A stretch of DNA of 64,000 nucleotides from a bacterium (GTDB lineage Bacteria > Patescibacteriota > Andersenbacteria > UBA10190). Within the stretch, counting starts at the first letter, position 1. Every line of letters begins with the position of its first letter. The stretch lies in assembly GCA_030698495.1 (NCBI GenBank), contig JAUYKA010000008.1:14895-78894 (forward strand), read 5' to 3'. The notes below the pieces were generated by a model. It did no database searches. It was given only the letters and a program-made list of their open reading frames with translations, and had not been told where the DNA came from. Below, in pieces: positions 35,259 to 63,677 of the stretch. A program made the translations under genes and the position numbers.

Positions 35259-35641
35259 TTGATTTTTTGGTTTTCAGCGGTTCTATTCCGGCTCGTACAC
35301 AAACGTTTGCTATTGTTGTTAGCGGGGGTTTATTTTTATTGATTGTGTATTTAATACGTAGCGGTCGCCTGAAAGAGGGTTATTCGCTGATATGGTTTTT
35401 TATAGCGTTAGCTACGGTTGCCTTGTCGGTTTTTAGTGGACTGCTTGATGTTTTTGCCAGGTTTATCGGAATTGCTTATGTACCGGCAGCTCTGTTTTTA
35501 GTGTTGTTGGGCGGAGTGTATTTATTGGGTATTCATTTTTCTTTGCTGCTCAACAGGTATGATAAACGCATCCGACAATTGGCCCAAGAGCATGCTATAC
35601 TGAAGGAACAAATCGCTAAACTGCTTGATAAAAAGTTATGA
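35255..35641 (+). CDS. Small 3-4 TM membrane protein with a C-terminal amphipathic tail (GtrA-role or DUF2304-like). It is a likely partner of the GtrB-like enzyme.
   Basis: 128 aa, translationally coupled to the upstream GT2 by an ATGA overlap. It has hydrophobic helices then KRIRQLAQEHAILKEQIAKLL. Confidence 0.5.
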   Translation: MIDFLVFSGSIPARTQTFAIVVSGGLFLLIVYLIRSGRLKEGYSLIWFFIALATVALSVFSGLLDVFARFIGIAYVPAALFLVLLGGVYLLGIHFSLLLNRYDKRIRQLAQEHAILKEQIAKLLDKKL

Positions 35642-39659: not shown

Positions 39660-41080
39660 TGAGAAGAAGAGACGTATCCTGGTTATTGGTGGTGGTCACA
39701 GCTGTTTTTGTGATTGTGCTTTGTTGGCAATATCCTTTGTCGGTTTCGTTTCCTGTCGGTGGAGATGTTATGCGCTATATAGCCAGAGCTAATGCGGTAA
39801 AGGACGCCTTGCAATTTTCTATACCAGACGGGTTCAGTCTTCTAATAAGAAATTCATCATACCCGGCTTCTATTTTGGTAGTTCTGGTGGCCGGTTTGGT
39901 GCCGATAGGGTGGCCCGAGAAGTGGCTATTGTTGATGTTTCTGGCTCAAATTGCTTGTGCGGGATCGCTTTATTATGTAGTCGGAAAAATTACCGGCAAC
40001 AGAATAACGGCTTGTTTAGCGGCCGCAGCCTGGGCGATTGTGGGTTTAAGTTTTACCCGCCATATTGAAGACGGGACATTTGCCCAACTTATGAGTCTGC
40101 CGGCTTTTGTGTTTTTTCTGGGGCAGTTGATGAATAAAAAGTATATCACGGCGATTTTTTGGGTGATGTTGTCGTTCTTGTTCCATCCGGTTACCGGCTT
40201 GGTCGCCGGGTTGGTTGCTGTTCTTTATCTGGTGACTAACCTTGATAATTTTGTAAGCTCGAGCAAAAAAAAGGTTGTTGGTTTGGTGTTGTTGGTGATT
40301 TCTTTGGGGGTAGCGATCTATTTTTTGAAAAAATATGATCATTTATTTTTATTGGACTATTCAAGTGATAATGGCATATCGTTGACTGATTTACTTAACT
40401 CTTCTTTTGGTACTTTGTTGGTCATGACTCCCTTGGGAATGATAGTGTTTTTGAGAAAATATAAGCGAGAGGGACAGGCCCTGGTTGTTGCTACGTTTAT
40501 ACTATTTCTCTTTATTTTTCAGAACCAGCTGGTGGGGGAGAGTATGTTTATTAACCGCATAAATTCTTATCCGGCCATTTTTGTTTCCATATTCTCGGCG
40601 ATTGCGATAGCTGAAGTGGTGAGAACCATTAGGGTTGCCAATATTCTTTTGCGGGTGCTTCTGGTCTTAGTGTTTTTTAGTATGGGTGTTAGCGTTTGGT
40701 CGCAGCAAGGAAATATTTATCGGTATTATGATGATCCGGGAAATTATGCCAGAGTGCACCCTGATGAACTGGCTGCTATTTACTGGTTACGCGATAATAC
40801 TGCTGCTGATGACGGAATTGTTTCTACCGTTGCTAACAGACATAGTGAGTGGATACCAATATTAAGCCAAAGACAGTGGGTCGGTTTGTATGCTGACGAC
40901 GTATTATTTACCGCCGATAATTTTTTGTTTAAGAAGATTAGCGGGGAAAAGGGCTATGATTACGCAGTGGTTTTTAAGAACCGTGAGGAGAGAGTTGATT
41001 TGATTAAAGGAGGGGTTTCGGAATCGTCTATTGTGTATCAGAATGACGCCGCGGAAATAATTAAAATATCACAGCTATGA
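39647..41080 (+). CDS. Polytopic membrane protein of unknown function, a GT-C-like candidate.
   Basis: 477 aa with 10-12 TM helices, then a roughly 120-aa soluble C-terminus. I recognise no motif. Confidence 0.5.
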   Translation: MYEIMRRRDVSWLLVVVTAVFVIVLCWQYPLSVSFPVGGDVMRYIARANAVKDALQFSIPDGFSLLIRNSSYPASILVVLVAGLVPIGWPEKWLLLMFLAQIACAGSLYYVVGKITGNRITACLAAAAWAIVGLSFTRHIEDGTFAQLMSLPAFVFFLGQLMNKKYITAIFWVMLSFLFHPVTGLVAGLVAVLYLVTNLDNFVSSSKKKVVGLVLLVISLGVAIYFLKKYDHLFLLDYSSDNGISLTDLLNSSFGTLLVMTPLGMIVFLRKYKREGQALVVATFILFLFIFQNQLVGESMFINRINSYPAIFVSIFSAIAIAEVVRTIRVANILLRVLLVLVFFSMGVSVWSQQGNIYRYYDDPGNYARVHPDELAAIYWLRDNTAADDGIVSTVANRHSEWIPILSQRQWVGLYADDVLFTADNFLFKKISGEKGYDYAVVFKNREERVDLIKGGVSESSIVYQNDAAEIIKISQL

Positions 41081-43089: not shown

Positions 43090-45249
43090 TTGCGGGCATA
43101 TATTGAGTTCATGAAAACGAGTGTAAAAACGCATGTTTTGGCAGTAGGATTCTATTTGCTAGCGACGGTAATTTTTAGCTTGCCGGTGGGGTTACATTTG
43201 ACCGACCAGGTGGTTGGGGCGGGAGGTGATCCGTGGCAGACAATGTGGAGATTTAGCCATTACGAGCAGCAAGTAGTAAGTAGTAAGCAGCAAGGAATGT
43301 TGCTGCAGTTAGTGCGAGAAACATTTGGCGGTGCCGGAGATTCACGTTTGGTTAATTTGTCGGCATGGCCGTGGATGTGGCTGCAGGTTATCGCGGGGCA
43401 GCCGCTAACATATAATTTGGTTTGGCTGGGCAGTTTCACATTGGCTGGTTACGCAATGTTTTTGCTGGCGCAATATTTATTAAAAAGACATTGGGATCAG
43501 ATAAAGGAAAAGGAAGAGATTAGAAATACGCCGGCTAGGCAAATTAAAGTGGCTGCATTTTTGGCCGGTTTTTATTATATGCTGCTTCCTTTTCATGTGG
43601 CGCATGCGCAAGGGCATTTCGGCGCGATGCAACTGGCGTGGCTGCCGCTGGCGATATTATTGATTTTTAAAATTTTGGATAAGCCGACTTGGGGGCGTGG
43701 TCTGGGGCTGGCAATTGTGGTAATTATTCAGGCGTGGACAGAGCACCACTATGCTCTGTGGCTGGCTGTATTTGCTTTAATTTTGGCGGTTTGGCGGTGG
43801 CGCAAAGTGATTGATATTATGCGAGGCAAGCGGTCGGTGGTGATTTGGGTCATGGCGGTGGTGATTGGGTTGGGGATTATTGTGCCATACTGGCCGACGG
43901 TGAGGTTGGTGGGGTCCGGTGATAGTGTTTTGAATTTAGGGACGGATCAGACAGTCAGGTTTTCGGCTGACGTATTTTCCTATCTGGTGCCGGCGCCGTT
44001 TCAAACATTGTGGGGAAAATACGCGCAGATGTTGTTTTCCCAGCGCTTTACCGGAAACTTTACCGAATCCACGCTTTTTCTCGGCTGGGTGCCTTTGTTG
44101 CTGATATTGTTCTTTAGTCAAAGAGTACCGCGCCAACAGCGAGTATTTTGGTTGGTAGTTGCCGGTTTTTTTGGATTGATTAGTTTAGGCCCGCTACTTC
44201 ATGTAATGGGAACAGTAACGCGTATTCCGTTACCGTACGCGCTGATTGATAGTTGGCCGATATTTAGCTCGGTTAGGGCGGTGGCTCGGGCAGGAGTAAT
44301 GGTAGAAATTAGCGTCGCGGTTTTGCTGGGTTGGGTGGTGGCCACTCAAGTAAATAGGAAAAGCATGGTTTTTGCGCTGGCGGGCGTGATTATGCTGGAG
44401 TTTATGTTTTGGCCGATGCCAATGCAGTCGGCGAGACTGTCTCAAGTGTATCGGCGTGTGAGCGAATTGCCGGGGAAGAGCGTGATAGAGATACCGGCAG
44501 CGACAAATTACACGACCGCATCTCGGGCTTTGTACGCGAGTGAGATTCATGGTAAAAAAGTTGTCGGCAGTATCGCGCTGGAGCGGGCTGAAGGCGATAG
44601 TGATAACGCAGAAATAAGATCTCTACCGGCCTTAAGGCAGCTGCTTTATTTGCGAACAACTCATGTCGAGCGGCAGAGTGATGATTTCTTCGGCCAGGTG
44701 TTGGCGGAAACACTGCCGGATGTTTTGAGGTATTTGGACGTGGGCGCGATTGTTATAAATAAAGATTCTTTATCAGATAATCAGTTGACGGTCGTGCGTC
44801 AGTTTCTGGAGCGGGAGATGAAGATGCAGGCGGAGGATTTTGGCGATGTTGTGTTATACCTGGCTGAAATTGATAAACTGCCGGCGGGCGACGGTGTTTT
44901 CTTGTCGCGGGATAGCCGCTGGGCCAACGTGGGGTATGACAGTAAGCGTGACAGTATTTTTGCCGAAATACCCAATGAGGCTGAAGTGGCACTGTATAAC
45001 GTAAGGGGTGAGAATGTCCAGGTTGGGTTAAGGTTTGATATCGCGCCAGAGTCACAAGGAAACATTTTGGTTAAATCCGCGGACAAAATGGTAACAGACT
45101 TACATTTACAAGGAGGTGAAGAGGCAAAAATTAGGATGACACTACCGTTGGGTAAAACAACTTTGACTTTCATTAATCGCGGTAGCGGGAAAGTGGTTAT
45201 CCAAAATCCCTTGCTGGAAGTCGCTGGGGTAGGAGTAGAGATTAATTGA
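43090..45249 (+). CDS. Large polytopic membrane protein with a C-terminal extracytoplasmic domain. It is a GT-C-like candidate, possibly an oligosaccharyltransferase or polymerase-type enzyme.
   Basis: 719 aa with about 12 TM helices. The first loop has LTDQVVGAGGDPWQ, an acidic motif. The C-terminal roughly 250 aa is hydrophilic and beta-rich. I assigned no family. Confidence 0.5.
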   Translation: MRAYIEFMKTSVKTHVLAVGFYLLATVIFSLPVGLHLTDQVVGAGGDPWQTMWRFSHYEQQVVSSKQQGMLLQLVRETFGGAGDSRLVNLSAWPWMWLQVIAGQPLTYNLVWLGSFTLAGYAMFLLAQYLLKRHWDQIKEKEEIRNTPARQIKVAAFLAGFYYMLLPFHVAHAQGHFGAMQLAWLPLAILLIFKILDKPTWGRGLGLAIVVIIQAWTEHHYALWLAVFALILAVWRWRKVIDIMRGKRSVVIWVMAVVIGLGIIVPYWPTVRLVGSGDSVLNLGTDQTVRFSADVFSYLVPAPFQTLWGKYAQMLFSQRFTGNFTESTLFLGWVPLLLILFFSQRVPRQQRVFWLVVAGFFGLISLGPLLHVMGTVTRIPLPYALIDSWPIFSSVRAVARAGVMVEISVAVLLGWVVATQVNRKSMVFALAGVIMLEFMFWPMPMQSARLSQVYRRVSELPGKSVIEIPAATNYTTASRALYASEIHGKKVVGSIALERAEGDSDNAEIRSLPALRQLLYLRTTHVERQSDDFFGQVLAETLPDVLRYLDVGAIVINKDSLSDNQLTVVRQFLEREMKMQAEDFGDVVLYLAEIDKLPAGDGVFLSRDSRWANVGYDSKRDSIFAEIPNEAEVALYNVRGENVQVGLRFDIAPESQGNILVKSADKMVTDLHLQGGEEAKIRMTLPLGKTTLTFINRGSGKVVIQNPLLEVAGVGVEIN

Positions 45250-47584: not shown

Positions 47585-48043
47585 ATGGCTAAATATGATT
47601 ATCGTAAATTAAAAACAAAAGAGCGGGAGAAAATTACAGGACAACTCGTTAAAGCGTTTAGTAAAGCAAACAGCAAGCAGGAAGTTCAGCAGTTTATAGA
47701 CCAGCTGTTAACGCCGAGTGAAAAAATAATGTTGGGACGAAGAATTCAGGTGGCTCGATTACTTATTCGCGGGTATACATACGTGGAAATTAGGCAAAAA
47801 TTGAAAGCGGGGATAAGTACAATTAAGTCAGTAGATGGCTGGTTAGAGATGACAGTACCTGATTATCAGGAATTGAGAGATTGGTATCGCAAGTGGATCT
47901 ATACAGATAAGGCAAAAAAGCCGGAGAAAAAGCGGAGCGGCAGTAGGGAGCCGGATATGTTTGGCTCATTTGCCAGTGTTCGGCATCGTTATGCCGGCCA
48001 TTTCTTATTATTGAATTTGTTGTTAGACAGTAATGAGGAATAG
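47585..48043 (+). CDS. TrpR-like DNA-binding protein (YerC/YecD family).
   Basis: LTPSEKIMLGRRIQVARLLIRGYTYVEIRQKLKAGISTIKSV resembles the Trp-repressor-like HTH of YerC/YecD. 152 aa. Confidence 0.55.
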   Translation: MAKYDYRKLKTKEREKITGQLVKAFSKANSKQEVQQFIDQLLTPSEKIMLGRRIQVARLLIRGYTYVEIRQKLKAGISTIKSVDGWLEMTVPDYQELRDWYRKWIYTDKAKKPEKKRSGSREPDMFGSFASVRHRYAGHFLLLNLLLDSNEE

Positions 48044-53235: not shown

Positions 53236-54390
53236 TTACTGGTTGGTTGGTACCAGTTCTTGGTACAAATCAACCAGTTTTTTTATTGATTTTTCCCAAC
53301 TAAAGTTTTGCCGAACGTATGCCTGGCCGTTTTTACCAAGACGAGTGGACAGGGCTTTATTACGCAACAGACCATCCAAGGCGCGGGTCAGTTGGTTTTT
53401 GTCATTAAAGAGCAAAGATGATTGATTATGGGGAGCAACATAAGGTATGGCTGCAACATTACGGGCAACAACGGCCAGGCCGGCAGCGGAGGCTTCGGCG
53501 ATAACAATGCCGAACGCTTCGTAAAAAGAGGGGTGGACAAAAACATCGGCGTGCCGATAGGCGGCCAGTATTTCCCGGTCGGTCAGATGACCGATGAATT
53601 TTACGTGGCGGTCTACACCTTGCGCGCCGGCCAGTTTTAGTAATGTTTTTTTGACACCAAAATCATCACCGATGATGACGTACATGACGTCGGGGTGTTT
53701 TTTGATAATTTCCGGGAGCGCCAAAATCATGTCTTGGTAACCCTTGGCCGCTGAAATACGTCCGATCGAAAGAAGTATTCGGCCCGATATACTCCTGGCG
53801 GCAAACGGATTTTCGTTTGCGGGCGTTGATTGGTTGACCGTAACGCCCGGAGGAATTAAGACAAAACGTTTAACGGGAAAATTGTTTTTTTCTATCAGCT
53901 TTTGTTCATAGGGAGAAATGACAATGACAGCATCGGCGTTAGCAAAAGTTTTTTTGCCGATAGTGCCGGCATATAGCCGCCAGAGGGGCTTATGTCTGAT
54001 TTTGTTAGTGTAGAAAAACGGATTAAAAACGAAGGGTATATGATGTTTTTTGGCATAGCGCGAGGCGGTGTCAGCCGGTTGGTACCAAAAGCTATGGGCG
54101 TGAATAATGTCGGGCTGGTGGTGCTTCAGGTAATAGGGCAGCGCTTGAAGTTTAGGATAAGAAACAAAGGGGGTGGTGCCGGTAAAAAGACGCTGAATAT
54201 AAGGAGGATCATCCAGAAGCAGTTCGGGGTTTAATGTTGTGACGGGTCCGTGTGTGCGCATGGCGCTGGTTAAAACGCGTACGTCGCGGTGAGCCGATAT
54301 GTTGCGCGTTCTTTCAACGAGCTGTTTTACGTATGTTTCAACGCCGCCGGTGGCGGGAGGGTAACGCAGGCAGGTGTGGATGATTCTCAT
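53236..54390 (-). CDS. GT4-family glycosyltransferase.
   Basis: It has MRIIHTCLRYPPATGGVE and FVHPSFYEAFGIVIAEASAAGLAVVARNVAAIPYV. Confidence 0.85.
   Translation of the reverse strand: MRIIHTCLRYPPATGGVETYVKQLVERTRNISAHRDVRVLTSAMRTHGPVTTLNPELLLDDPPYIQRLFTGTTPFVSYPKLQALPYYLKHHQPDIIHAHSFWYQPADTASRYAKKHHIPFVFNPFFYTNKIRHKPLWRLYAGTIGKKTFANADAVIVISPYEQKLIEKNNFPVKRFVLIPPGVTVNQSTPANENPFAARSISGRILLSIGRISAAKGYQDMILALPEIIKKHPDVMYVIIGDDFGVKKTLLKLAGAQGVDRHVKFIGHLTDREILAAYRHADVFVHPSFYEAFGIVIAEASAAGLAVVARNVAAIPYVAPHNQSSLLFNDKNQLTRALDGLLRNKALSTRLGKNGQAYVRQNFSWEKSIKKLVDLYQELVPTNQ
53238..53286. terminator. Putative intrinsic terminator for the 52834..53223 gene. It lies within the 3-prime coding end of the convergent GT4 gene.
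   Basis: The outer stem is actggttg/caaccagt, with an inner hairpin gtacca-gttct-tggtac. A run of seven T residues follows. Confidence 0.35.
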
Positions 54391-54503
54391 GACTGCAGAA
54401 TGATAAATATTTGTCTAAATTGGAAGCTGGTATGTTGACGAATATCAAATATCAAATTACAAATGCCAAATAAATTCCAAAATCCAAATACCAAAATGAA
54501 GAT

Positions 54504-54567
54504 AGTATTTGTCATTTGGGCTTTGACATTGATTTAGTATTTGTCATTTGGGCTTTGACATTTAGTA
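54504..54567. repeat. 32-bp tandem direct repeat x2 (agtatttgtcatttgggctttgacatt...) spanning the stop codon of the GT2 gene.
   Basis: The copies are at 54504..54530 and 54536..54562. Copy 2 encodes NVKAQMTNT and copy 1 contains the TGA stop. A CAAAT-rich tract lies upstream at 54443..54498. Confidence 0.7.
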
Positions 54568-55396
54568 GATATTTGTTTCCCATTTCAAATTCATAATAAG
54601 CTGACAAGAGGCACCAAACTATACCAGACCAGCCATCCAGTATGCCGCGGCGGTAAAATAATAGTTTGATTAGTTGGTGCAGAGCTAGATAGTAGGGCAG
54701 AAAAAACGATGGGGAAACTTTGCGTCCCGAGCGGTGGCGACCGGTTTCGGCCATCAGGGAGGCATCGAGCGTGGTGTAATGGTGCATTTTTGTTAGGTAG
54801 GATTTTACGGTTTGGTGCGAATAATGGAGGAGGGGGGTTTCCAGGATTTTCGTGTCTTGGTCGCCTAGGTGGATCACATTTTGTTGCTTAGAGATTGCCG
54901 CGTCGTCGCCAGAGGCTCCTCCTCGCAATGACGGTATTACGCGAGTCACTTGTTCGTGGACTTTGTCGTCTGTCCAGCGGGCGGTGTCTTTTTTAAATAA
55001 ACGCAAGTTGTGCCCGTAGAGATGATTTAAGGGTTTGCCCAGAAAAACAGTTACTATTTTGAGCCAGTAATAATTAATGTATTTTGTATTTTGTATTTTG
55101 TATTTTGCGGTGACGGTCTTTATTTCATTGGCGAGTTCCGGTGATACTTCTTCATCGGCGTCGATAAATAATACCCACTCTCCGGAAGCGTGTTTAAGAC
55201 CGACGTTTTTTTGCGGGCCATAACCAAGCCAGCTTTGTTTAATTACTTGGGCGCCTAGGGTGTGAGCTATATCTACGGTGTTATCGGTGCTGTCTGAATC
55301 GACGATAATTTTTTGGTTAACAAAGTTAAGACCGTTCAGGCAGCGGCTGATGTTGGACTCTTCGTTTTTGGTGATGGTGACGGAAGTTATACTCAT
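54512..55396 (-). CDS. GT2-family glycosyltransferase of the WaaE/KdtX (LPS-core-type) subfamily.
   Basis: SVTITKNEESNISRCLNGL...IIVDSDSTDNTVDIA...GEWVLFIDADEEV closely matches the WaaE/KdtX N-terminal signature. Confidence 0.8.
   Translation of the reverse strand: MSITSVTITKNEESNISRCLNGLNFVNQKIIVDSDSTDNTVDIAHTLGAQVIKQSWLGYGPQKNVGLKHASGEWVLFIDADEEVSPELANEIKTVTAKYKIQNTKYINYYWLKIVTVFLGKPLNHLYGHNLRLFKKDTARWTDDKVHEQVTRVIPSLRGGASGDDAAISKQQNVIHLGDQDTKILETPLLHYSHQTVKSYLTKMHHYTTLDASLMAETGRHRSGRKVSPSFFLPYYLALHQLIKLLFYRRGILDGWSGIVWCLLSAYYEFEMGNKYLLNVKAQMTNTKSMSKPK
55078..55105. repeat. Heptanucleotide tandem repeat (TGTATTT)x4 inside the WaaE-like GT2 coding sequence.
   Basis: There are four perfect 7-nt units, followed by tg. 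The unit length is not a multiple of 3. Confidence 0.85.
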
Positions 55397-55402
55397 TGAT
55401 TT

Positions 55403-56038
55403 TTAGCTGCTGATGGTACGAATTTTGATAGGTAATTTACGGATAAAATTCAAGTGGCGGTGAAAATCTTTTAAAGATACAAAATAAGGGTAAGAAGACG
55501 GCGTGCTGGAGACCAGGTGGAATGTTTCGATAAGCCAGAGGTTATTGATACATGCCCAGACAGCTAATAAATTGGCTTTCCAGACGCGGTAATTAGCGGT
55601 TGTAAAATTGTAAGTTTTAAGAGCCATTGGTTCGGCCGGCGGTATTTTTTCAAAGCCTTTTTCTACGGTACGAGCGAAACGATAAAAACGAGAGGCGGCG
55701 GTTGTAACGGTTTGGTTGTATGCTCCGCCCGGATAAACCAGGGTTTGAGCATGAAGAAGACTGGCCGGTTGCTGTAATTCCGATAATAGTTGAGTTTTAT
55801 TTAGCTTAGTGAGATCTGCGTGAGAAATGGAGTGGGCAGCAATTTCGTGTCCGGATTGTTTAAGTGGCAGCCAACGGTCGGGTCCGGCCGTAGCTATTTT
55901 TTCTTGGGCGGCTACTGCCTGGCTCTGAATAGGCACGGCAAAGACAGCCGGAATTTTATGTTTATTGAGCATAGGAACAACTTCGTTTAAAACCGGCTCG
56001 TAGCCATCATCAAATACGAATGTAAGATAACCGGACAT
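55403..56038 (-). CDS. Polysaccharide deacetylase (CE4 / NodB-homology domain).
   Basis: LTFVFDDGYEP is motif 1 (TFDDG) and AAHSISHADL is motif 2 (H-S-x-x-H). Confidence 0.8.
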   Translation of the reverse strand: MSGYLTFVFDDGYEPVLNEVVPMLNKHKIPAVFAVPIQSQAVAAQEKIATAGPDRWLPLKQSGHEIAAHSISHADLTKLNKTQLLSELQQPASLLHAQTLVYPGGAYNQTVTTAASRFYRFARTVEKGFEKIPPAEPMALKTYNFTTANYRVWKANLLAVWACINNLWLIETFHLVSSTPSSYPYFVSLKDFHRHLNFIRKLPIKIRTISS

Positions 56039-56039
56039 T

Positions 56040-57215
56040 CTAAGAAGAGACTCTTTTAAGTAGATTGATTAAGCGCTGACTGCTTTGGCCGTCGGTGTAG
56101 GTGATAAGTTTTTTGATAGTGGCGAGACGAGTGTTTTGTTTGAAGGCGGGATCGGTCAGATATTTTTGCATGGCCAAAATAAGTTGTTTTTCATTATTGA
56201 CAACAGTGGTGCCGCCACTTGAAATAATATCACGGTAATGTTGCCGGAAATCACGGTAAACCATTGAGCGGTACCAACGCCACCAATCGAAGCGGCGGCC
56301 GTATTTTACGTTAACGACCGGGACATCGGCTAGCATGGATTCAATAGCCACGGTGGAAGATTGGTTGATGAGTATGGCAGAGTGTTTAAATAGGGCTACG
56401 TGCCGATAAATTTCTTCGTATGTCGGCAAGTAGTGAAAATGCGGTGAGGGCGAGTCTGACCTTCGGCCGAAGGAATATTCAACCTTGGCGCCGTATTGGC
56501 GATAGAACAAATGGCGGGAGATATCACCGCCGGGATGAACCGAAGCGTAAATTGAGGTGTTGCCAGGCAATTGGCGGCGGCTGACAGCTTGCTTAATGGA
56601 TTGAATAATGTAACCGAAGGGGTACAGCTCGGTGGTGGCGCAGTGAATAAGCTTTTGATCAGGCTTTAGCGATAGAGAGGTCAAGAACTGTTGGCGATCG
56701 GGAATTAGATGGTTATGATAGAAAAAATCAAAACGGGGAACGCCGATAATGTCTATTTTTTCTCTGTATTGAGAAAAGAGACGTAATGCGTGGTCACGCA
56801 TCATACTATTCCAAACAGCCAGATGGTCGGGCAGAGCGTATTCCCGACCGTATTTTATCAGACGCTCAATTTTATAAACATTGTCCCAACTGGCAATAAA
56901 CGCGCAGGAGGGGATATTGTGGCGGTGCGCGGCGCGAATTATGGGCAGGTCAGAACTATCAAGGCCGATAGTGGGGGTGACTACAATGTCCGGTTGCAGT
57001 TGGTTTAGCAGTTTGTCGTGCCCTGTTTGGTCGGAAGGGGTTTGGTGATAGCTGAATTTATCACCCAAGCTATTGAGGCGAGAGCGTAAATAATCGGCCG
57101 CGGGGGTTAAGACTTGAACGTGTGATATGACGGGGTCATTTTTCAATAAAGGAGCGAGAGGCAATAAGAGCTCGCGTGTGTTGAAGCCGGTGGGAGCAGA
57201 AACGGCTATTTTCAT
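56040..57215 (-). CDS. GT-B-fold-like transferase of unknown family. I chose a start at MKIAVSAPTGF (57215); the alternative is 57263.
   Basis: About 391 aa. It has a Rossmann-like N-domain and a C-terminal SSTVAIESMLADVPVVNV segment consistent with GT-B. I could assign no family. Confidence 0.4.
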   Translation of the reverse strand: MKIAVSAPTGFNTRELLLPLAPLLKNDPVISHVQVLTPAADYLRSRLNSLGDKFSYHQTPSDQTGHDKLLNQLQPDIVVTPTIGLDSSDLPIIRAAHRHNIPSCAFIASWDNVYKIERLIKYGREYALPDHLAVWNSMMRDHALRLFSQYREKIDIIGVPRFDFFYHNHLIPDRQQFLTSLSLKPDQKLIHCATTELYPFGYIIQSIKQAVSRRQLPGNTSIYASVHPGGDISRHLFYRQYGAKVEYSFGRRSDSPSPHFHYLPTYEEIYRHVALFKHSAILINQSSTVAIESMLADVPVVNVKYGRRFDWWRWYRSMVYRDFRQHYRDIISSGGTTVVNNEKQLILAMQKYLTDPAFKQNTRLATIKKLITYTDGQSSQRLINLLKRVSS

Positions 57216-57235
57216 GAGATAGGCTTTATGCGGGA

Positions 57236-57943
57236 TTATTTCCCCGTCAGCCGCAGTTTCCAAACTATAGCCATGGCTTCACGGACTATTTTGCCACTCA
57301 TTTTAGATTTCCCGGCCCGGCGTTCAGTAAAGACAATGGGTATTTCTTTAATGCGCAGATGTCGGCGCCATGACCGGAAGATGGTTATTACTTGAAAACC
57401 ATAGCCATCGGCACGGATTGTTGGTAAGTCAATAGTTTGAAGAGCGCTTGATCGCCAAGCGCGAAAGCCGCCGGTTGAATCTTTAAAAGGAAGGCCGGTA
57501 ATAAAACCGGCGTAAGCGTTGCCGCCGATGCTTAAAAGTAAGCGGCGCAGGGGCCAATTGACGATACTGATGCCGTTAACGTAGCGCGAGCCAATAACAA
57601 CATCGCTGCTTTCCAGGTGTTGGAGTAGTCGGGGGACATCATGGGGGTTATGAGAAAAGTCCGCATCCATCTGCACGACACTATCCGCCCCTTTTGCGAC
57701 GGCGTATTGAAAACCATGAATGTAGGCGCGGCCGAGGCCGGATTTTTTGGGGCGGACGACGAGTTGCAGTTTTGGAAAGTTGGTTTGCAGACGGCGCACT
57801 ATATCGGCCGTGCGGTCGGGAGAGTTATCGTCAATAATAAGAACGGAAATATTGGGTACGTTAAGAGCGAACAAAGATTTGATCATTTGTTCGATATTCA
57901 TTTTTTCGTTGTAGGTAGGTATGACTACCCAAGGATTGTTCAT
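57236..57943 (-). CDS. Dpm1/Ppm1-like GT2 polyprenol-monophosphate sugar synthase (dolichol-phosphate mannosyltransferase family).
   Basis: It has VVIPTYNEKMNI, VLIIDDNSPDRT, GLGRAYIHGF, VQMDADFSHNP and VVIGSRY. Confidence 0.9.
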   Translation of the reverse strand: MNNPWVVIPTYNEKMNIEQMIKSLFALNVPNISVLIIDDNSPDRTADIVRRLQTNFPKLQLVVRPKKSGLGRAYIHGFQYAVAKGADSVVQMDADFSHNPHDVPRLLQHLESSDVVIGSRYVNGISIVNWPLRRLLLSIGGNAYAGFITGLPFKDSTGGFRAWRSSALQTIDLPTIRADGYGFQVITIFRSWRRHLRIKEIPIVFTERRAGKSKMSGKIVREAMAIVWKLRLTGK

Positions 57944-58005
57944 ATGCCAAGATTAGCAGTATATGGGGTTATTAGTAAACCCTGCGGATGCAGGCAAATA
58001 AGTAA

Positions 58006-59052
58006 TTAACCGGGCGGAAGAATGTCTTGAAGCACAGTCATGATTTCGGACACGGTAATGGCCGCCAGGCCGGACTTGGTTGATTGTTTGCCGGGACGCG
58101 TCCAATTTTTATAGTGTTGTCGGTTTACCTCGGCGGATGTTAATTCGGGCGGAGGATTCGGGCTTTTTAGGATAGTATACGGAAGAGAAGATGGTCCGAG
58201 TAGAGTACGGTGTCGGCGTTGTTTATCCGCAATATATTTATTAAGAAAAAAGGCCGGAGCTGATCGGTGTAACGCCTGATCGCAAAAAAGGGTAAGCGTA
58301 GGCGCACCGACGGCCGCGGCAAAATGGAGAGGTCCGGACATTACGCCGATAGCCGCATCGGCAAAAGTCAACGTGGCCATGTTTTCTCTTAACGTAAGGG
58401 GGCGCCCTTTGTATTCCGGCGTATATTTACCGCCAAACCAGATAGGCGCGACGCGGTATATTTTTTTTATTTGCGATGACAAATCGTCTATTTTACCGGG
58501 GTCCCAACCGCGAGTAGTGGCGCCTTCCAGTCCTTCCAGCAGAATAATGCGGGGGTGAGGCGCGCTGGCCATAACGTTGGAGGCAATATATTCGTCTTGA
58601 GGTGTTAAATATATTTTATAGTTGGTAAAATCCGCTTGCGGTAATCCCAGGTGCCGATATATTTTTTTTAATGGGTTGTCTTCGTGGCCGATGCCGAAAT
58701 CAAGTTCGTATGTGTTAGTATAGGAGCCGGAATTTTTTTGTTGATTAAAATACTGACGGTTCCAGGTGGGGAAACACCGGCCATCTTCACAACAAGTGCG
58801 GGCTGACAGGTCAAGCTTGGTATCATGCCAATGGATTAATTGATCTATGTGAGGGTTAGTCATGATGAGACTGACGCAGAAACCGTCCTGATTTCTTTTG
58901 CCCCAGCGGCCGTGTTTATCTTTAAATCCCCAGGGTGTTATAAAGGTAATATGGCAGTCTGGATATTTTTGTTTCAGGACAGATAATATGGGCGGTATAA
59001 AAAAAACCAGATCACCCATGTTGCCGACGTGTTTTATTAAAAATTTTTTCAT
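58006..59052 (-). CDS. GT9-family (heptosyltransferase-like) glycosyltransferase.
   Basis: It has KHVGNMGDLVFFIPPILSVLKQKYPDCHITFIT at the N-terminus and GVMSGPLHFAAAVGAPTLTLF at the C-terminus. Confidence 0.6.
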   Translation of the reverse strand: MKKFLIKHVGNMGDLVFFIPPILSVLKQKYPDCHITFITPWGFKDKHGRWGKRNQDGFCVSLIMTNPHIDQLIHWHDTKLDLSARTCCEDGRCFPTWNRQYFNQQKNSGSYTNTYELDFGIGHEDNPLKKIYRHLGLPQADFTNYKIYLTPQDEYIASNVMASAPHPRIILLEGLEGATTRGWDPGKIDDLSSQIKKIYRVAPIWFGGKYTPEYKGRPLTLRENMATLTFADAAIGVMSGPLHFAAAVGAPTLTLFCDQALHRSAPAFFLNKYIADKQRRHRTLLGPSSLPYTILKSPNPPPELTSAEVNRQHYKNWTRPGKQSTKSGLAAITVSEIMTVLQDILPPG

Positions 59053-59135
59053 GGCTTATTTTTAAGCATATACATAAGAAGGAAAAGTGGAAGCGCCTTA
59101 ATAGACAATCAGAAGAGCTGTAATATAATAAAGCT

Positions 59136-60179
59136 ATGTATGACAAGAGCTTAAGAGGCGGGTTTGTGTTGGCGGAGTTGTTGATTGTAATAGCGATCTT
59201 TGGAATTCTAACGGCAATTATTGTAGTGGCGGTAATGTCGGCAAACAGGAGCGCTCATTTAGCGCGGGTTAAGGTGCATGCCGCGCAGGTTAATCGATAT
59301 ATCGAAGCTGATTGCGTCAGTAAAATTGATATTACCGACAGCGCGCCACTGGACAGCTGTGCCGGTGCCAGCGTAACTACTTATGGTAATCCGCAAGTGG
59401 TGGAGGGTTTTGACGGCAAGAAGGCGTGGCATTTTACGGGTAATGAGTATGTTGAGGTATCAGACGTGCCAGCTTTAGGTGATTCATGGACAATAGCCAG
59501 CTGGTTTAAGCCCGATGATGTGGCTACGTTGAACGGGGCGGTAATTAGCGCTGTCGGAAACAGCGGTTCTTATTATCATATTTTTGTTGCCGGCAAGACC
59601 GTTTATGCCTACATGATAACTCCATTGTTGGATATTCAACTGACAGGTCTTGATGTGTTATCTGCAGACGATTGGAATCATATCGCTTTTACTTACGATA
59701 ATACGAAGAAGTTGGCGAGCCTGGTGGTCAACGGGGAACTGGTGGATCAAGTGTTAAAGTCCGACACGGCCGCGCTGAAGCAAAGTTCTCTAGCACTAAG
59801 TCGTCAAGAGGGGCGTGTGGCGGGAATTATGGACGAGGCGGGTTTTGATCGGATTGTCATTGGTAATTATGCAAGTTCATATCCGGTAGAGGGTTTGGTT
59901 ATGGGTGTGATAGAATCAAACGTTTCCGTACCGACAGCGGTGATCAGTACCTCACCGACGGCGCAGCCAACGGATTCACCGACACCTACACCGACTATTA
60001 CGCCGACCGATTCACCGGTCTACTCTCCAACTTACACACCGACGGATTCACCAACTTGGTCGCCAACACCATCAGAAACACCAACGATAACCCCGACGTG
60101 GACTCCGACATTGACCCCAACTCCGACTTCGTCATGGACGCCAACTCCAACAATTACTCCCACAACATCCCCGACTTAA
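59136..60179 (+). CDS. Type IV pilin-like protein with an N-terminal prepilin motif, a LamG/concanavalin-like domain and a C-terminal Pro/Thr-rich tail.
   Basis: RGG|[20 protein letters not shown] has a Glu at +5 relative to the putative cleavage site. [27 protein letters not shown] is a LamG signature. The last roughly 80 aa are SPT/PTP repeats. Confidence 0.7.
59941..60176. repeat. Low-complexity coding repeat of ccgac/ccaac-rich units that encodes the PT-rich tail.
   Basis: It holds many reiterations of acnccgac(g/t). It translates to [12 protein letters not shown]...TPTPT. Confidence 0.7.
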
Positions 60180-61296
60180 TTTTTTGGGTTAAACTTTGAT
60201 CTACAAGCGCCATTAATCGCTCGGCGGATGGCTGATAGTCATATTTAATTAAGTTATCAAGGGCTATCTGAACTGTCTGTTGGTAGTAATCACTGTCAGT
60301 GAGTAGTCGGATGGCTTGACCAATAAGGTCAGTAACGTCGGCAGGATCAGGAGAGTAAAGATCGGGATATAAGTCGCGTTGGCCGTCGGAGTTGGCGCCG
60401 ATGCTGGGCGTGCCAACGGCGGCGCAATCGGTTTGCACACGCCCGCGTGTAAACGTGGCGTCAGTATTTATAACTAAGCGAGCGCGCGCGATGGTTTGCA
60501 GATGTTTAGACCATTGCTCAAAGGGAAGAAATTCGTATTTTGATTGGCCGAGGTTAGTTGTGTCGTAGTCGAGTTCGGGGACTTTAGGAATTAAGATTCT
60601 TAAATCAGGATATTTTTTCTGGATGGCGGCCGCGACAAGCTGCCCTTTGGTAATATCGGAGCGCTGGGTAACTCCGGCAATAATAATAGTGTTGTTCTTG
60701 TGGCCGCCGTCTTTAAAAAACTTGGTGGCATAATGGGTCGGGTACGGCTGGGGGAGGTAACTCGCTTTGACACCAGATATTTTAGTGTACCAATCCACCG
60801 TATCACGGACTACGCTAATAAAAATATCACATGATTGAATAAAGTCTACCAAGTCTTTTTTACTGATCGGATTGTTTTCTACGGCCTGGCGCAGAATGCC
60901 GTACGGCTGTGTAGGGACGCCGATTATAAATGGACGGGGTGATGTCTCGCGCAGATGATTGACGGCCTTAATCATTTCACGGGTGTCACTTAGTTGGTGA
61001 ACGGTCATGATCGTGTCGAAGCGGCGCAGATACTCAAGGTTGTAGTCGTCCGGCCAGGATCCGGACAAGCGCTTTATTATTTTGCGAAAAAGGACGGCGG
61101 CGGGAGAAACATGGTTTACTGGACCGACAATTAGACCCAGCAGCGGAACATGTTCTCCCTTGAGAGCGGAAACATAACAGCCGAAGCTGGTGGGATCTAT
61201 TTCTGTTTGGGGATTACACAGGTAGTTGGGCTTGTTCTCTTGGTGGCGCCAGACGCGGCCGGATTTTGATGTGTATTCAAGAACGGCGAATTTCAT
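60154..61296 (-). CDS. GT-B-fold glycosyltransferase-like protein (degenerate GT4-like).
   Basis: 380 aa. The C-terminus has [37 protein letters not shown], resembling the GT4 E-x7-E region. The assignment is uncertain. Confidence 0.45.
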
Positions 61297-61316
61297 AAGT
61301 TATAAAAAAGATTTTA

Positions 61317-62906
61317 TTATATGGTAAGATCCGGTGTTTTAGAACGCGTTAACTTATTTTTGGCAATTGCGACAATGTCGTGAATTTCTTCGATGCGCCA
61401 GAGGTAAGCGGCCGTTAGGTAGAAGGCGGCGCCGGTTATGATAGGTATTATAACCTGGATTAGGTTGCTAAGCGCTGGCTGGTCGGGGAAAATAGATAAG
61501 AGAGGGAAGACAAGCCGGAGAAGGAAAAACATGGCGACGGTTAGTACTATGATTTTGGGGTAGGAAGAATGCCAATAGGCAAGGTGGAGGCGAGGAATGA
61601 AACGAGAGAGGTAAAGGAAATACAGTCCGGCTATAACTAGCGGTACAAGTGAAGAAGCCAGGGCTAATCCGGCCACACCCATTCTGGGGGTGAGTAGGAC
61701 GAAGAGAAAAATCGCAACAGCTTGGGAAGATATAGATACGGCGACAGCCGCGCGAGTTTCCTGCAGAGCCAGAACGGTGTGACCGAGAATAGAGCTTAAA
61801 CCGTTGATAGCTAGGCCTAACCCCAAGAAGAGGAGAGCGATGCTGGTTAGGCGAGTATCAGCCGCGGAAAAAGATCCGTGTTGGTAAAGTAATGATATCA
61901 GCGGCAGGCGCAGTATGATTATGCCGGCGATAACTGGCAGGGTAATAAGGAATATCAGGCGGCTGGCATAGCCGATGGTGTCGCGCATGCCGGTAAAATC
62001 TTGCTGGCTGGACTTGGCGGACAAGAGGGGAAAAATGACAACTGTGATTGAATTTAGAAACATGATTGCCAGAAGTTGAGTGATTTTCTCGGCATATTTT
62101 AGAGAGGAAAGGCTGCCGGCGGAAAGATCAGATACAAGGACGCGATAAACGATACCAGCTCCTTGCGTAACTAGGACGGAAAAAAGAAAGGGATAGGTAA
62201 GACGAAGCATTTTTTTGAAAGCGGGATCAAGCGGGGCAAAGACAAAACGATAATGAAAATTTTTGCGTCCAAGCGTCCAAAAGACCAAAAGTAATTGCAG
62301 GCAGGATCCCGCCAATACGCCAATTGCCAGCGAGTAGATGCCAATTAATGAAGTGAGAGTGGCCACCGCTATTAAAGAAACGGCGGGGGCAATTACGCGC
62401 AGTAGAGCCGGTACAATAAACGACTTAAGCGAATAGAGTATGGATACAGCCAAATCCACCAGATACAGAAACAGGAAAGAGGGCAGCATGATGCGCAATA
62501 GCGCCACGGTCAGGTCGGTGGTGACAGGATCAAACCCGGGTGCGATAAAGGCGACGAATGGCCTGGCAAAAAGAGCCAGGAGAGTAATTAAAATGATAAA
62601 GATACAACCGGTGACATGTAGGATGTTTAAACCGAGTTGCCAAGCTTCCTGGTGTCGGTTTTTGGCGATGCGGTTAACAAACATAGGTAGAAATACGGCG
62701 GTAATAGAACCGCCGAGCAACAACTTACTAAGCATCTCCGATGTTGATTGTGCCATAAAGAAGGCATCGGTTTTAGATGAGGCGCCGAAGAAGTAGGCAA
62801 CCGTTAACTGAAGGAGAAATCCGACCAGCGCGCCGCCCAGGGCGGCCGAGCTGATCAAGCTGGCGGACCCGATTGTTTGTTGTGACTCCTTGGTGTTTTT
62901 ATTCAT
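61317..62906 (-). CDS. murJ: MurJ/MviN-family (MOP superfamily) lipid-linked glycan flippase.
   Basis: 529 aa with about 14 TM. The N-terminal LQLTVAYFFGASSKTDAFFMAQSTSEMLSKLLLGGSITAVFLPMF matches the MurJ N-terminal signature (fGas..tDAff.A...P....eGa...afvP.f). Confidence 0.7.
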   Translation of the reverse strand: MNKNTKESQQTIGSASLISSAALGGALVGFLLQLTVAYFFGASSKTDAFFMAQSTSEMLSKLLLGGSITAVFLPMFVNRIAKNRHQEAWQLGLNILHVTGCIFIILITLLALFARPFVAFIAPGFDPVTTDLTVALLRIMLPSFLFLYLVDLAVSILYSLKSFIVPALLRVIAPAVSLIAVATLTSLIGIYSLAIGVLAGSCLQLLLVFWTLGRKNFHYRFVFAPLDPAFKKMLRLTYPFLFSVLVTQGAGIVYRVLVSDLSAGSLSSLKYAEKITQLLAIMFLNSITVVIFPLLSAKSSQQDFTGMRDTIGYASRLIFLITLPVIAGIIILRLPLISLLYQHGSFSAADTRLTSIALLFLGLGLAINGLSSILGHTVLALQETRAAVAVSISSQAVAIFLFVLLTPRMGVAGLALASSLVPLVIAGLYFLYLSRFIPRLHLAYWHSSYPKIIVLTVAMFFLLRLVFPLLSIFPDQPALSNLIQVIIPIITGAAFYLTAAYLWRIEEIHDIVAIAKNKLTRSKTPDLTI

Positions 62907-63078
62907 GGTTCCAATAAAAAACTATGGCCAATGTCAGTAATAGGATGCCGGCATAAAAAAGGGACGTGTCCGCATAAGGGGTAAATAACGCTGACTGCAG
63001 CCAGCGCATGGCAGTAACAAGCGTAGATGCTACTAAGAACGACAAGGCGAGAAAAATAGTTACCTGTTCAAGTTTCAT
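62899..63078 (-). CDS. Small 2-TM membrane protein (59 aa), translationally coupled to murJ. It is below the ORF-track length cut-off.
   Basis: It reads MKLEQVTIFLALSFLVASTLVTAM...ILLLTLAIVFYWNHE. Its stop overlaps the murJ ATG (cATGAATAA). Its start overlaps the upstream gene stop. Confidence 0.3.
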   Translation of the reverse strand: MKLEQVTIFLALSFLVASTLVTAMRWLQSALFTPYADTSLFYAGILLLTLAIVFYWNHE

Positions 63079-63677
63079 ACAGCTCGCTCGCGTAATAGTA
63101 TACCGCGCAGAAAACGAATAGTTGGTAAAATGGTAGGTTGGGTGGTCTTGATGTGTGCGTTTATGTTACGCAATGTCCATAGTGCCGTCTGATTGTTCTC
63201 ATCCAGTGCTTTAAGGGGGTCGTTATTATCAGTAAAGAACATTAGATCGAGCGATTGGTCAGCCGCGGCCAGTTTGTCGGTTAAATCAATTGTAATAGAA
63301 GCTGTTTGCGGGTCGGTGATGTCGCGGCCGGTTTCGTTTTTATAAAAGGTGACGGGCTGATAACTTAGCCAGAATTGGTTCTGTCTGATGCCGACCGATA
63401 GGCTGGCCGTGCGTCGGGGGATAAAATCGACAGTAAGGTTTAATTGTTTGGCAAAGACCGGTTGATGAATAACAATATCGCTGTGGGCTAAATTTTCCGT
63501 GATTAGCGTTTCGTTGTTTGGCTGCGGGAAGGGGATCCCGTCGATATTGGTCGGCGCGGAAATATAGACATTGCCAGTAAAGATAAGCGACCACACAAAA
63601 ATCGACGCTGCTATCATCAGCGCGAAATAGCAAACAGCTACCAAATATATAATTGCGGCGAAGACCTTAGGCAGCAT
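63075..63677 (-). CDS. Membrane-anchored hypothetical protein with an N-terminal TM and an extracytoplasmic domain.
   Basis: 200 aa with an N-terminal AAIIYLVAVCYFALMIAASIFVWSLIF. It is in an operon with murJ. Confidence 0.5.
   Translation of the reverse strand: MLPKVFAAIIYLVAVCYFALMIAASIFVWSLIFTGNVYISAPTNIDGIPFPQPNNETLITENLAHSDIVIHQPVFAKQLNLTVDFIPRRTASLSVGIRQNQFWLSYQPVTFYKNETGRDITDPQTASITIDLTDKLAAADQSLDLMFFTDNNDPLKALDENNQTALWTLRNINAHIKTTQPTILPTIRFLRGILLRERAV

Follow-up and report, generated by a model that had tools for sequence, protein, structure and literature searches.

The 64-kb stretch of DNA analysed here (the window) holds an open reading frame encoding a pilin-like protein of three parts: a prepilin leader, a LamG jelly-roll and a tail of 85 residues dominated by Ser, Thr and Pro (Table 1). 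A protein of identical sequence is present at NCBI (P0001), annotated as 'LamG-like jellyroll fold domain-containing protein [bacterium]'. The gene lies in a glycan island that exceeds 64 kb and is read against the direction of its immediate neighbours, two divergent glycosyltransferase genes and MurJ.

Table 1. Features of the pilin gene and its surroundings, in positions of the window
Feature	Position	Strand	Basis or detail
Lineage-specific inserted segment, ~1.13 kb	59053..60180	.	synteny, junctions, unk380 extension
Pilin-LamG-PT-tail ORF	59136..60179	+	347 aa plus stop, ATG start
Class III signal (leader) peptide MYDKSLRGG	59136..59162	+	sequence, TIGR02532, family alignment
Pilin alpha-1 helix, residues 10-58	59163..59309	+	AlphaFold, hydrophobic segment, weak PDB pilin matches
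LamG / concanavalin-A-like jelly-roll head, residues 60-238	59313..59849	+	Pfam, AlphaFold, Foldseek, PDB profiles
Disordered Thr/Pro/Ser-rich C-terminal tail, residues 263-347	59922..60176	+	composition, pLDDT, repeats
Sigma-70-like promoter TAGACA-16 nt-TATAAT	59102..59129	+	11/12 consensus matches, region's best site
Divergent GT9-like glycosyltransferase, conserved flanking gene	58006..59052	-	Pfam, orthologues
'unk380', divergent GT-B (GT4-like) glycosyltransferase, conserved flanking gene	60154..61296	-	hhalign, orthologues
MurJ	61317-62906	-	profile matches
26-nt overlap of the pilin 3' end with the convergent unk380 3' end	60154..60179	.	ORF coordinates

The leader is nine residues long, basic and ends in Gly, with prepilin-peptidase cleavage predicted after Gly9. 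Read directly from the sequence (MYDKSLRGG/FVLAE), it is followed by Phe at +1 and Glu at +5, the pattern of a class III signal peptide. TIGR02532, which models the prepilin N-terminal cleavage/methylation domain, scored 18.7 bits against a cutoff of 16.3, a small margin, and Pfam N_methyl (PF07963) was not reported for this ORF at E ≤ 0.01. An alignment of 111 family sequences shows F10, L12 and E14 to be invariant. On the combined strength of the sequence reading, the TIGR02532 score and the invariance of F10 and E14, we retain the prepilin leader of the original prediction. The leader gives way to the long alpha-1 helix of a pilin, modelled by alignment-based AlphaFold over residues 9-58 at a pLDDT of ~90; its N-terminal half, which includes the Glu at mature position 5, is hydrophobic (segment centre near residue 15), and PDB pilins gave weak matches to this region. 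A type II secretion pseudopilin was considered because of matches to GspG and GspH and was rejected, since these covered the shared N-terminal helix alone at scores far below the cutoffs. We found no gene for a prepilin peptidase, an assembly ATPase or a further pilin, either in the window or in the 10 kb that follow it on the right; type IV pilus genes are reported to be well conserved in Patescibacteria (PMC11623550).

The head is a LamG/concanavalin-type domain, as first proposed, both by sequence profile (Pfam Laminin_G_3, cutoff 27.6 bits, matches residues 101-234 with 56.1 bits) and by its modelled jelly-roll, a beta-sandwich spanning residues 60-238 at a pLDDT of ~85-95. The model used was built from the 111-sequence alignment, and a single-sequence model (pLDDT 44) was discarded. 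Foldseek matched the head to the lectin-like Hc-N domains of clostridial neurotoxins and to domain 4 of AbnA, and PDB profile matches were to 4qvs, 5hon and neurexin LNS. The closest subfamily invariably has Cys60 and Cys75, a pair that could form a disulfide. LamG domains are known to mediate protein-protein contacts as well.

The tail contains 30 Thr, 22 Pro and 12 Ser (75% Ser/Thr/Pro), in good agreement with the PT-rich end of roughly 80 residues described earlier, and AlphaFold predicts it to be disordered (pLDDT<50). It is the sole Ser/Thr/Pro-rich stretch across the six frames of the window. The last residues are ...TTSPT, leaving a C-terminal Thr that is unspecific in a tail of this composition. 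Imperfect repeats of 36 nt and 24 nt are present in the DNA that encodes it. Third-codon positions in the tail avoid C, as they do in other + strand genes, yet C-rich Thr and Pro codons are retained in the face of a strong G>C strand bias, a sign that the composition of the tail may be under selection.

The combination of N_methyl with Laminin_G_3 is a frequent modular-pilin architecture (Raynaud et al., 2021; PMC8179133) and widespread in the ultrasmall Patescibacteria, and the protein described here, with a pilin motif and PF13385 in one polypeptide, is a member of this family. An exhaustive HMMER search returned 1610 relatives, dozens of which are 240-300 aa long and align from residue ~8 to ~205-240, and at least 2767 proteins carry PF07963 together with PF13385 at E ≤ 1e-10; source taxa named for the latter are Patescibacteria, Paceibacterota, Daviesbacteria and Nealsonbacteria. 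Against the family profile the ORF reaches 233 bits. Members from the CPR share its two-part build, and their alignment with it extends from the leader through the final strand of LamG, with W180 invariant in addition to the three N-terminal positions and with both Cys residues present in the closest subfamily. They are annotated either as 'LamG-like jellyroll fold domain-containing protein' or as 'prepilin-type N-terminal cleavage/methylation domain-containing protein'. No other protein is more than ~37-41% identical to the present one, and its function therefore cannot be taken over from close homologues. A third homologue search, with a profile of the Cys-pair subfamily, recovered essentially the same set and neither a closer relative nor a longer contig. 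The search with the full-length protein was dominated by unrelated proteins with TPTPT linkers, its useful output being the identical NCBI entry; the matches inspected indicate that linkers of this type are ubiquitous among secreted proteins and often mere spacers. What sets the present pilin apart from its family is the added 85-residue PT tail, found in none of 133 sampled members and unique in a set of 135 family sequences, and its atypical location in a glycan island. Seven homologues elsewhere have housekeeping or pilus-assembly genes around them and not glycan clusters, and some adjoin pilM/pilO/T2SSE genes or another pilin gene. The protein is thus an ordinary member of a known family with one unusual feature, its Thr/Pro tail.

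The neighbours had been named as a GT9 gene, a GT-B-like gene and murJ, and Pfam/NCBIfam and hhalign bear this out. The GT9-like protein matches Pfam Glyco_transf_9 at 25.6 bits over residues 219-263 only, and its orthologues, 55-62% identical, directly follow unk380 in relatives. No Pfam, NCBIfam or PDB sequence match was obtained for unk380 itself; we assign it to the GT-B enzymes because hhalign aligned it with the window's own GT4s (96.3%, E=1.7e-9, 223 columns) over the GT4/GT-B C-terminal domain. Its orthologues are 47-56% identical and lie downstream of MurJ in 12 genomes.

These 12 related loci or genomes (Candidatus Andersenbacteria and allies), compared by tblastn synteny, reveal how the pilin gene came to lie where it does. 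The order unk200-MurJ-unk380-GT9-GT2-...-Glyphos_transf-deacetylase-GT2-GT4 is conserved in all of them; unk380 and the GT9 gene are separated by 9-40 nt or share an ATGA start/stop overlap, with no pilin gene between them, and no pilin-LamG homologue was detected within +/-7 kb. Because the flanking genes are directly adjacent in the 12 relatives, the pilin gene is a lineage-specific antisense insertion. The inserted segment consists of an 83-bp promoter region and the pilin ORF, and its right boundary can be placed only to within about +/-10 nt, since unk380 C-termini vary in length. In the present lineage unk380 runs on for 8 non-conserved codons into the inserted DNA, which accounts for the 26-nt overlap with the convergent gene that had been pointed out before and that the coordinates corroborate. 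A search around the inserted segment for the marks of a mobile element (flanking direct or inverted repeats, or a terminator) gave nothing convincing. When the exact GT9-like protein sequence was looked up for population variants without the insertion, no record was found; the sequences L001-L003 are 100% identical to the window.

The inserted gene probably brought its own strong promoter, judging by the sigma-70-like site in the promoter region. The -10 hexamer ends 6 nt 5' of the ATG and no Shine-Dalgarno sequence can be seen, which points to a possibly leaderless mRNA. Synonymous-site usage in the pilin gene agrees with that of resident + strand genes, which argues for a long-established coding sequence in its current orientation; a recent foreign acquisition is rejected on the same grounds. 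Read from the synteny, the location among sugar-building genes is a result of a recent insertion and not a conserved partnership. Since the insertion is confined to the present lineage, the neighbours say little about what the pilin does, a caution against guilt by association at a locus whose glycan setting is unfit for inferring function.

We consider it probable, at about 0.6, that the protein is a modular type IV pilin of a member of the Patescibacteria (CPR), probably from the Andersenbacteria lineage, that acts as an adhesive, glycan-binding minor pilin, with a LamG head and a disordered tail, encoded by an inserted gene. In this model, prepilin peptidase would remove the nine-residue leader, and the protein would be anchored by its hydrophobic alpha-1 helix, first in the membrane and later in a type IV filament. 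The LamG/concanavalin-A-like jelly-roll, which is carried directly on the helix in place of an ordinary pilin head, would bind carbohydrate of another cell or surface, by analogy with characterised lectin pilins. The pilin would most likely function in attachment, as a tip subunit or one of low abundance, and the tail, a disordered extension, may serve as a spacer or brush and is possibly O-glycosylated. The gene, together with what appears to be its own promoter, entered a conserved MurJ-linked envelope-glycan operon in antisense orientation in this lineage only. Patescibacteria spend their lives attached to other microbes, presumably by means of their type IV pili. Lectin-headed pilins are prime candidates for host recognition, and they form a very large family of which we found no experimentally studied member in the literature searched. 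The present pilin alone adds little to this picture, but a tail shown to be glycosylated would open up protein glycosylation in the CPR.

Two sets of pilins, the nearest characterised analogues, serve as comparisons for this model. PilC of Streptococcus sanguinis, a glycan-binding lectin pilin of the ConA-like type (PMC9934059; PDB 7OA7/7OA8), likewise has a class III signal peptide and a module of the ConA/LamG superfamily and comes from a monoderm organism, and it could be a model for tip-located glycan binding by the present pilin. PilC differs in having a short pilin moiety and an Ig-like module before the lectin, a mass of ~53 kDa and no PT tail, whereas the jelly-roll of the present pilin directly follows the alpha-1 helix; PilC is absent among the listed sequence and Foldseek PDB matches, and the likeness is one of analogy. 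The Saccharibacteria strain TM7x (N. lyticus) has lectin-like jelly-roll minor pilins that have been linked to host binding (PMC11623550). These pilins, PilX1 and PilX2, resemble the present protein as CPR type IV pilins with jelly-roll or lectin-like modules implicated in the binding of host glycans. The PilX1 domain was missed by standard domain searches, the PilX2 domain is of the PLL type, and both are encoded in pil loci (PMC11623550).

Glycosylation of the tail is possible, given its composition. The original prediction went further and, from the position of the gene, took the tail to be an in-cis acceptor of the glycan encoded around it. Its pilin-like LamG protein with a PT tail stands, but the argument from position is left without its chief support: the 12 syntenic loci have no pilin, the seven homologues compared lie outside glycan clusters, window ORFs of at least 120 aa give no Pfam match to Wzy_C or PMT, and the overlap is a by-product of the insertion. 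We therefore regard it as unlikely that the tail is a dedicated acceptor for the glycan of the neighbouring genes (GT9, GT-B-like, GT2, MurJ and others) on a heavily O-glycosylated pilin. The flanking operon is often translationally coupled in the 12 relatives, and its presence there without the pilin implies that the glycan pathway is older than the pilin and functional without it; the context of MurJ, Glyphos_transf and deacetylase suits a wall-polymer pathway better. GT9-like protein heptosyltransferases of the TibC/Aah type are paired with an adhesin substrate, but the orthologues in the 12 genomes have no adjacent pilin and hence no conserved pairing of that kind. GT9 and GT-B enzymes are of the cytoplasmic type, and Sec would have to translocate a tail already heavily glycosylated by them in the cytoplasm.

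Among window ORFs of at least 120 aa, as well as two ORFs beyond the right end, there was no match to Wzy_C (PF04932), a search that very divergent enzymes might escape; nor was there a Pfam match to GT39/PMT (PF02366/PF13231) among the window ORFs of that length, the large membrane proteins being checked to E ≤ 5. At permissive Pfam/NCBIfam thresholds the large membrane proteins yielded no family beyond weak YfhO/AftD-like GT-C signals at 4690-7539 and 1152-2273. Several window proteins with 13-15 TM segments and no family match could nevertheless be GT-C enzymes, in favour of an in-cis acceptor. So is the GT2 at 57236-57943, two genes away, which resembles a polyprenyl-phosphate-sugar synthase; for this GT2 and the one at 34413-35258, the best matches are PpgS, AglJ and dolichyl-P-hexose transferase, whose cutoffs of 325-375 bits lie far above the 62-91 bits scored. 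NeuB and CMP-sugar genes (21099-24636) are also in the window. The tail itself is Pro-rich, Ser/Thr-rich, disordered and would be extracytoplasmic after Sec insertion, the type of segment favoured by the mycobacterial protein mannosyltransferase (PMC12331936), and no other segment of the island is of this kind.

The same properties could make the tail a substrate for a general system encoded elsewhere, or for one of the GT-C-like membrane proteins without a family match, with the position of the gene irrelevant, which we view as possible though doubtful. PT-rich disordered segments are O-glycosylation targets in Actinobacteria (PMC12331936), and O-glycosylation of PilX1 and PilX2, the jelly-roll minor pilins of Saccharibacteria, has been predicted in silico only (PMC11623550). 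The C-rich Thr and Pro codons kept against the strand bias also fit such a role. On the other side, no glycosylation enzyme was identified in the window, TPTPT-type linkers may be spacers only, and this kind of modification is without experimental precedent in the CPR. It is quite unlikely, to our mind, that the lectin-headed pilin carries a mucin-like, densely O-glycosylated brush, made by a GT-C-like enzyme on the outer face from the lipid-linked sugars of the island, the gene having been captured for advantageous co-expression. If this were true, Patescibacteria would have their first demonstrated pilin glycosylation system, and the tail would represent a new type of acceptor in pilins.

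Known O-glycosylation systems offer partial parallels. Pilins are modified by TfpO (PilA of P. aeruginosa 1244), by TfpO/TfpM in Acinetobacter and Moraxella, by PglL in Neisseria and by PglS (ComP of A. baylyi), and a Wzy_C domain is common to all known pilin O-oligosaccharyltransferases (PMC9829042). TfpO/TfpM-type enzymes modify a C-terminal Ser/Thr of the pilin, and the present protein ends in Thr, which can be counted in favour of an acceptor; for PglL/PglS the acceptor is an internal sequon in a low-complexity region. All of these systems need a Wzy_C oligosaccharyltransferase, for TfpO/TfpM usually encoded beside the pilin gene, and none was detected in the window; they also modify one or a few sites, compared with a PT region of 85 residues here. 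Actinobacterial O-mannosylation by Pmt/Ppm1 (PMC12331936, PMC6593405) acts on similar Pro/Thr-rich disordered segments of Sec-translocated proteins, and the window has short GT2s resembling polyprenyl-phosphate-sugar synthases, far below the equivalog cutoffs; the CPR host is, however, not an actinobacterium, and no GT39/PMT domain was found in the window.

Two further explanations were considered. The tail could be a vestigial inter-domain linker, the inserted fragment being the 5' part of a longer gene for pilin, LamG, linker and a second module, with the ORF ending at the edge of the insertion. The stop codon TAA (60177-60179) does lie only a few nt from the right boundary, the tail is unique within the family, and one member, P0072 (497 aa), has a pilin-LamG part, a Ser/Ala/Pro/Thr linker and a second LamG. 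That boundary is, however, uncertain by ~10 nt, the third-codon positions of the tail have equilibrated to the + strand bias, which implies long residence as coding sequence, and the ORF is intact behind a strong promoter with no remnant of a second module downstream, all of which make such an origin fairly unlikely. Alternatively, the pilin-like protein could belong to the glycan pathway itself, for example by binding, exporting or anchoring the island's polymer as a pseudopilin or lectin. The LamG fold binds carbohydrate in many proteins and the gene lies inside the island, but we find this reading very improbable: the pathway is conserved without the pilin in relatives, no other pseudopilus component is nearby, and homologues are dispersed among other gene neighbourhoods.

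The ORF at the centre of this analysis encodes a LamG pilin-like protein with a prepilin leader and a PT-rich tail, just as the original prediction had described it. The leader (MYDKSLRGG) is short and basic and ends in Gly; Phe follows at +1 and Glu at +5. Against TIGR02532, the NCBIfam model of the prepilin N-terminal domain, the N-terminus scores 18.7 bits, above the cutoff of 16.3, and no match to Pfam N_methyl was reported at E<=0.01. Pfam Laminin_G_3 covers residues 101-234 (56.1 bits against a cutoff of 27.6), and of the 85 residues of the tail (263-347), 30 are Thr, 22 are Pro and 12 are Ser, encoded by DNA with only loose repeats of 24-36 nt. A scan of all frames across the 64-kb window found no second S/T/P-rich stretch; the only prepilin motif there is that of this ORF, and the window has no pilus machinery.

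AlphaFold on the pilin sequence alone gave a pLDDT of 44, and the model used instead was built from a 111-sequence family alignment. It confidently places a long helix at residues 9-58 and, immediately after it, a beta-sandwich at 60-238 with a pLDDT of about 85-95. Foldseek against the PDB returned clostridial neurotoxin receptor-binding fragments (the lectin-like jelly-roll sub-domain) and domain 4 of the arabinanase AbnA, and the family profile matched 4qvs (an S-layer-associated LamG protein), AbnA (5hon) and neurexin LNS domains among PDB sequences, as well as type IV pilins through the N-terminus. By the model and these matches, the protein is a pilin stem bearing a LamG head in place of the usual small pilin globule. 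Residues 246-347 have a pLDDT below 50, so the PT tail is predicted to be disordered.

We suggest that the protein is a modular type IV pilin, the best-supported reading. A prepilin peptidase would remove the leader, the alpha-1 helix would insert into a type IV filament, and the exposed LamG head would bind a ligand, most probably a carbohydrate, as a putative lectin. This reading follows the established model of modular pilins, a survey of which counts those with PF13385 among the 15 most frequent architectures, CPR examples included (PMC8179133). Further precedents are PilC of S. sanguinis, a characterized lectin pilin of the ConA-like type (PMC9934059), and, in Saccharibacteria, minor pilins that are lectin-like and linked to host binding (PMC11623550).

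The architecture is already known and abundant. When residues 1-262 were run exhaustively with HMMER against 1.84 billion cluster representatives, 1610 relatives came back, many of them 240-300 aa long and alignable between residues ~8 and ~205-240; the closest non-self relative is 37% identical. Profile searches of a 5.8-billion-protein collection found at least 2767 relatives at E<=1e-10, nearly all with PF07963 and PF13385; where the source names an organism, it belongs to the Patescibacteria (Paceibacterota, Daviesbacteria, Nealsonbacteria). The identical NCBI entry is named 'MAG: LamG-like jellyroll fold domain-containing protein [bacterium]'. An invariant cysteine pair, C60 and C75, is common to the closest subfamily, and an S/T/P-rich region was found in none of 133 sampled family members. 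The protein is a divergent member with the PT tail as its sole distinctive trait.

Of seven family members on long contigs, one is next to mraZ and the dcw cluster; one next to rpoBC; one beside dnaE, with another pilin gene adjacent; one near pilM, MshEN and T2SSE ATPase genes; one near pilM and pilO; one near murB, secA and bacA; and one near a single GT2 and a galT-like gene. None of the seven lies inside a glycan island, so a link with glycan biosynthesis is no property of the family. At least two different members occur in the assembly GCA_040384245.1, a finding that fits a multi-copy, dispersed family.

With MurJ as anchor, the locus was compared with those of 12 species-representative genomes (MurJ 52-58% identical; deposited as Candidatus Andersenbacteria/Anderseniibacteriota or as 'uncultured Saccharibacteria'). 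All 12 keep the order unk200-MurJ-unk380-GT9-GT2-(...)-Glyphos_transf-deacetylase-GT2-GT4, with proteins 42-65% identical, and in each of them the stop of unk380 lies 9-40 nt from the GT9 start or overlaps it by ATGA. The family HMM found no pilin-LamG gene in these loci (~150 kb). In the window about 1.13 kb lies between the two genes, made up of an 83-bp promoter-bearing region and the pilin ORF, on the strand opposite to the flanking genes. Here unk380 has an 8-residue, non-conserved C-terminal extension reading into the inserted DNA, which accounts for the 26-nt overlap of the pilin gene with the convergent ORF that the original prediction had correctly noted. A search around the insertion for flanking repeats or signatures of mobile elements found none. 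A lineage-specific insertion accounts for the position of the pilin gene. Synonymous third positions of the gene, tail included, avoid C, like those of other + strand genes and unlike those of - strand genes, so the gene has long been coding sequence in its present orientation and is no recent foreign arrival.

Features of the window and of related loci
Feature	Position	Strand	Remarks
Pilin-LamG-PT-tail ORF	59136..60179	+	347 aa
Region upstream of pilin	59102-59136		-10 hexamer, no Shine-Dalgarno sequence
Inserted DNA	59053 to ~60180		divides a translationally coupled gene pair
unk380	60154..61296	-	convergent with pilin
Block common to 12 genomes	53236-63677		operon-like, often ATGA start/stop overlaps
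DUF4910/DUF2172/HTH_47	19829-21097		next to NeuB genes
NeuB homologue	21099-22904		601 aa; fused CMP-sugar cytidylyltransferase domain
Second NeuB homologue	23563-24636		SAF domain
Large membrane proteins (six)	2274-4712, 4690-7539, 11210-13066, 43090-45249, 39647-41080, L001 10091-12415		477-949 aa, roughly 7-15 predicted TM segments; L001, identical to the window, runs past its right end
GT2, then DUF2304	34413-35641		polyprenyl-phosphate-sugar-synthase-like; small, 3-TM
Trp-repressor family (PF01371)	47585-48043		amid glycosyltransferase genes
Wzy_C + TPR protein	L023 1-1202		733 aa; GCA_040384245.1

The original prediction had also proposed that the tail accepts, in cis, the glycan made by the surrounding locus. 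This part fared less well than the description of the protein, because position, its main argument, is explained by the insertion. Neither a Wzy_C domain, carried by all known pilin O-oligosaccharyltransferases (PMC9829042), nor a PMT domain was detectable in the window, and spacers of the TPTPT type are ubiquitous in secreted proteins; in-cis modification is improbable. Glycosylation by some system beyond this has a somewhat larger chance, still well short of even. The tail is acceptor-like, and a mycobacterial protein mannosyltransferase prefers Pro-rich Ser/Thr segments (PMC12331936); among the genes of the window, two short GT2s are similar to polyprenyl-phosphate-sugar synthases, though far under equivalog cutoffs; and several large multi-TM proteins there have no family assignment. 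The tail could possibly be the left-over linker of a longer two-module pilin, ended at the insertion edge, where the stop codon lies. A 497-aa family member (P0072) has such a layout, with a Ser/Ala/Pro/Thr linker and a second LamG beyond the first, but the equilibrated codon usage favours long-standing coding status.

The predicted pilin promoter, TAGACA-16-TATAAT, is near-consensus (11/12) and ends 6 nt ahead of the ATG, which, with the lack of a Shine-Dalgarno sequence, suggests a leaderless mRNA. Transcription from MurJ/unk380 can now reach GT9 only by crossing the pilin gene in antisense, unless it restarts; we found no convincing terminator or minus-strand promoter. Convergent transcription driven by this strong promoter could interfere with the operon. 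The strand asymmetry of the window is unusually strong: the + strand GC skew, (G-C)/(G+C), is +0.226 over 1-64000 and positive in every 2-kb bin (0.09-0.31) and every gene, whichever the coding strand, and the choice of synonymous codons differs sharply between + and - strand genes (for example ACC 17% vs 40%; CCG 50% vs 23%).

The entire window, judging by its gene content, is a glycan-biosynthesis island, with many GT4 and several GT2 copies, two GT9-like genes, epimerases/dehydratases, about ten methyltransferases, a TagB/F-like Glyphos_transf protein, a polysaccharide deacetylase, an ABC exporter and, just past its end, a Wzx-like flippase. MurJ is embedded in the glycan cluster, and a GT2 of the conserved block is polyprenyl-P-sugar-synthase-like. 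The unk380 family is highly conserved; unk380 matches nothing in Pfam, NCBIfam or the PDB sequences, and its profile with 11 orthologues aligns to window GT4 enzymes (96.3% probability, E=1.7e-9, 223 columns), which supports its earlier label as GT-B-like. The two NeuB genes suggest nonulosonic-acid synthesis (sialic, legionaminic or pseudaminic-type) in a CPR genome. The six large membrane proteins have no Pfam/NCBIfam assignment save weak YfhO/AftD-like signals in the one at 4690-7539, and all six are candidates for GT-C glycosyltransferases or polymerases; the GT2 and DUF2304 genes are a possible synthase-flippase pair, and the PF01371 gene is a possible local regulator. The TTG start listed for that GT2 creates a ~410-nt overlap with a convergent GT4 gene and probably lies too far upstream, as the Pfam domain begins at residue 50. 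In L023, a homologue locus from a different Patescibacteria genome, some ~5 kb separate the Wzy_C + TPR protein from another pilin-LamG gene, and such proteins could be candidate O-oligosaccharyltransferases in CPR.
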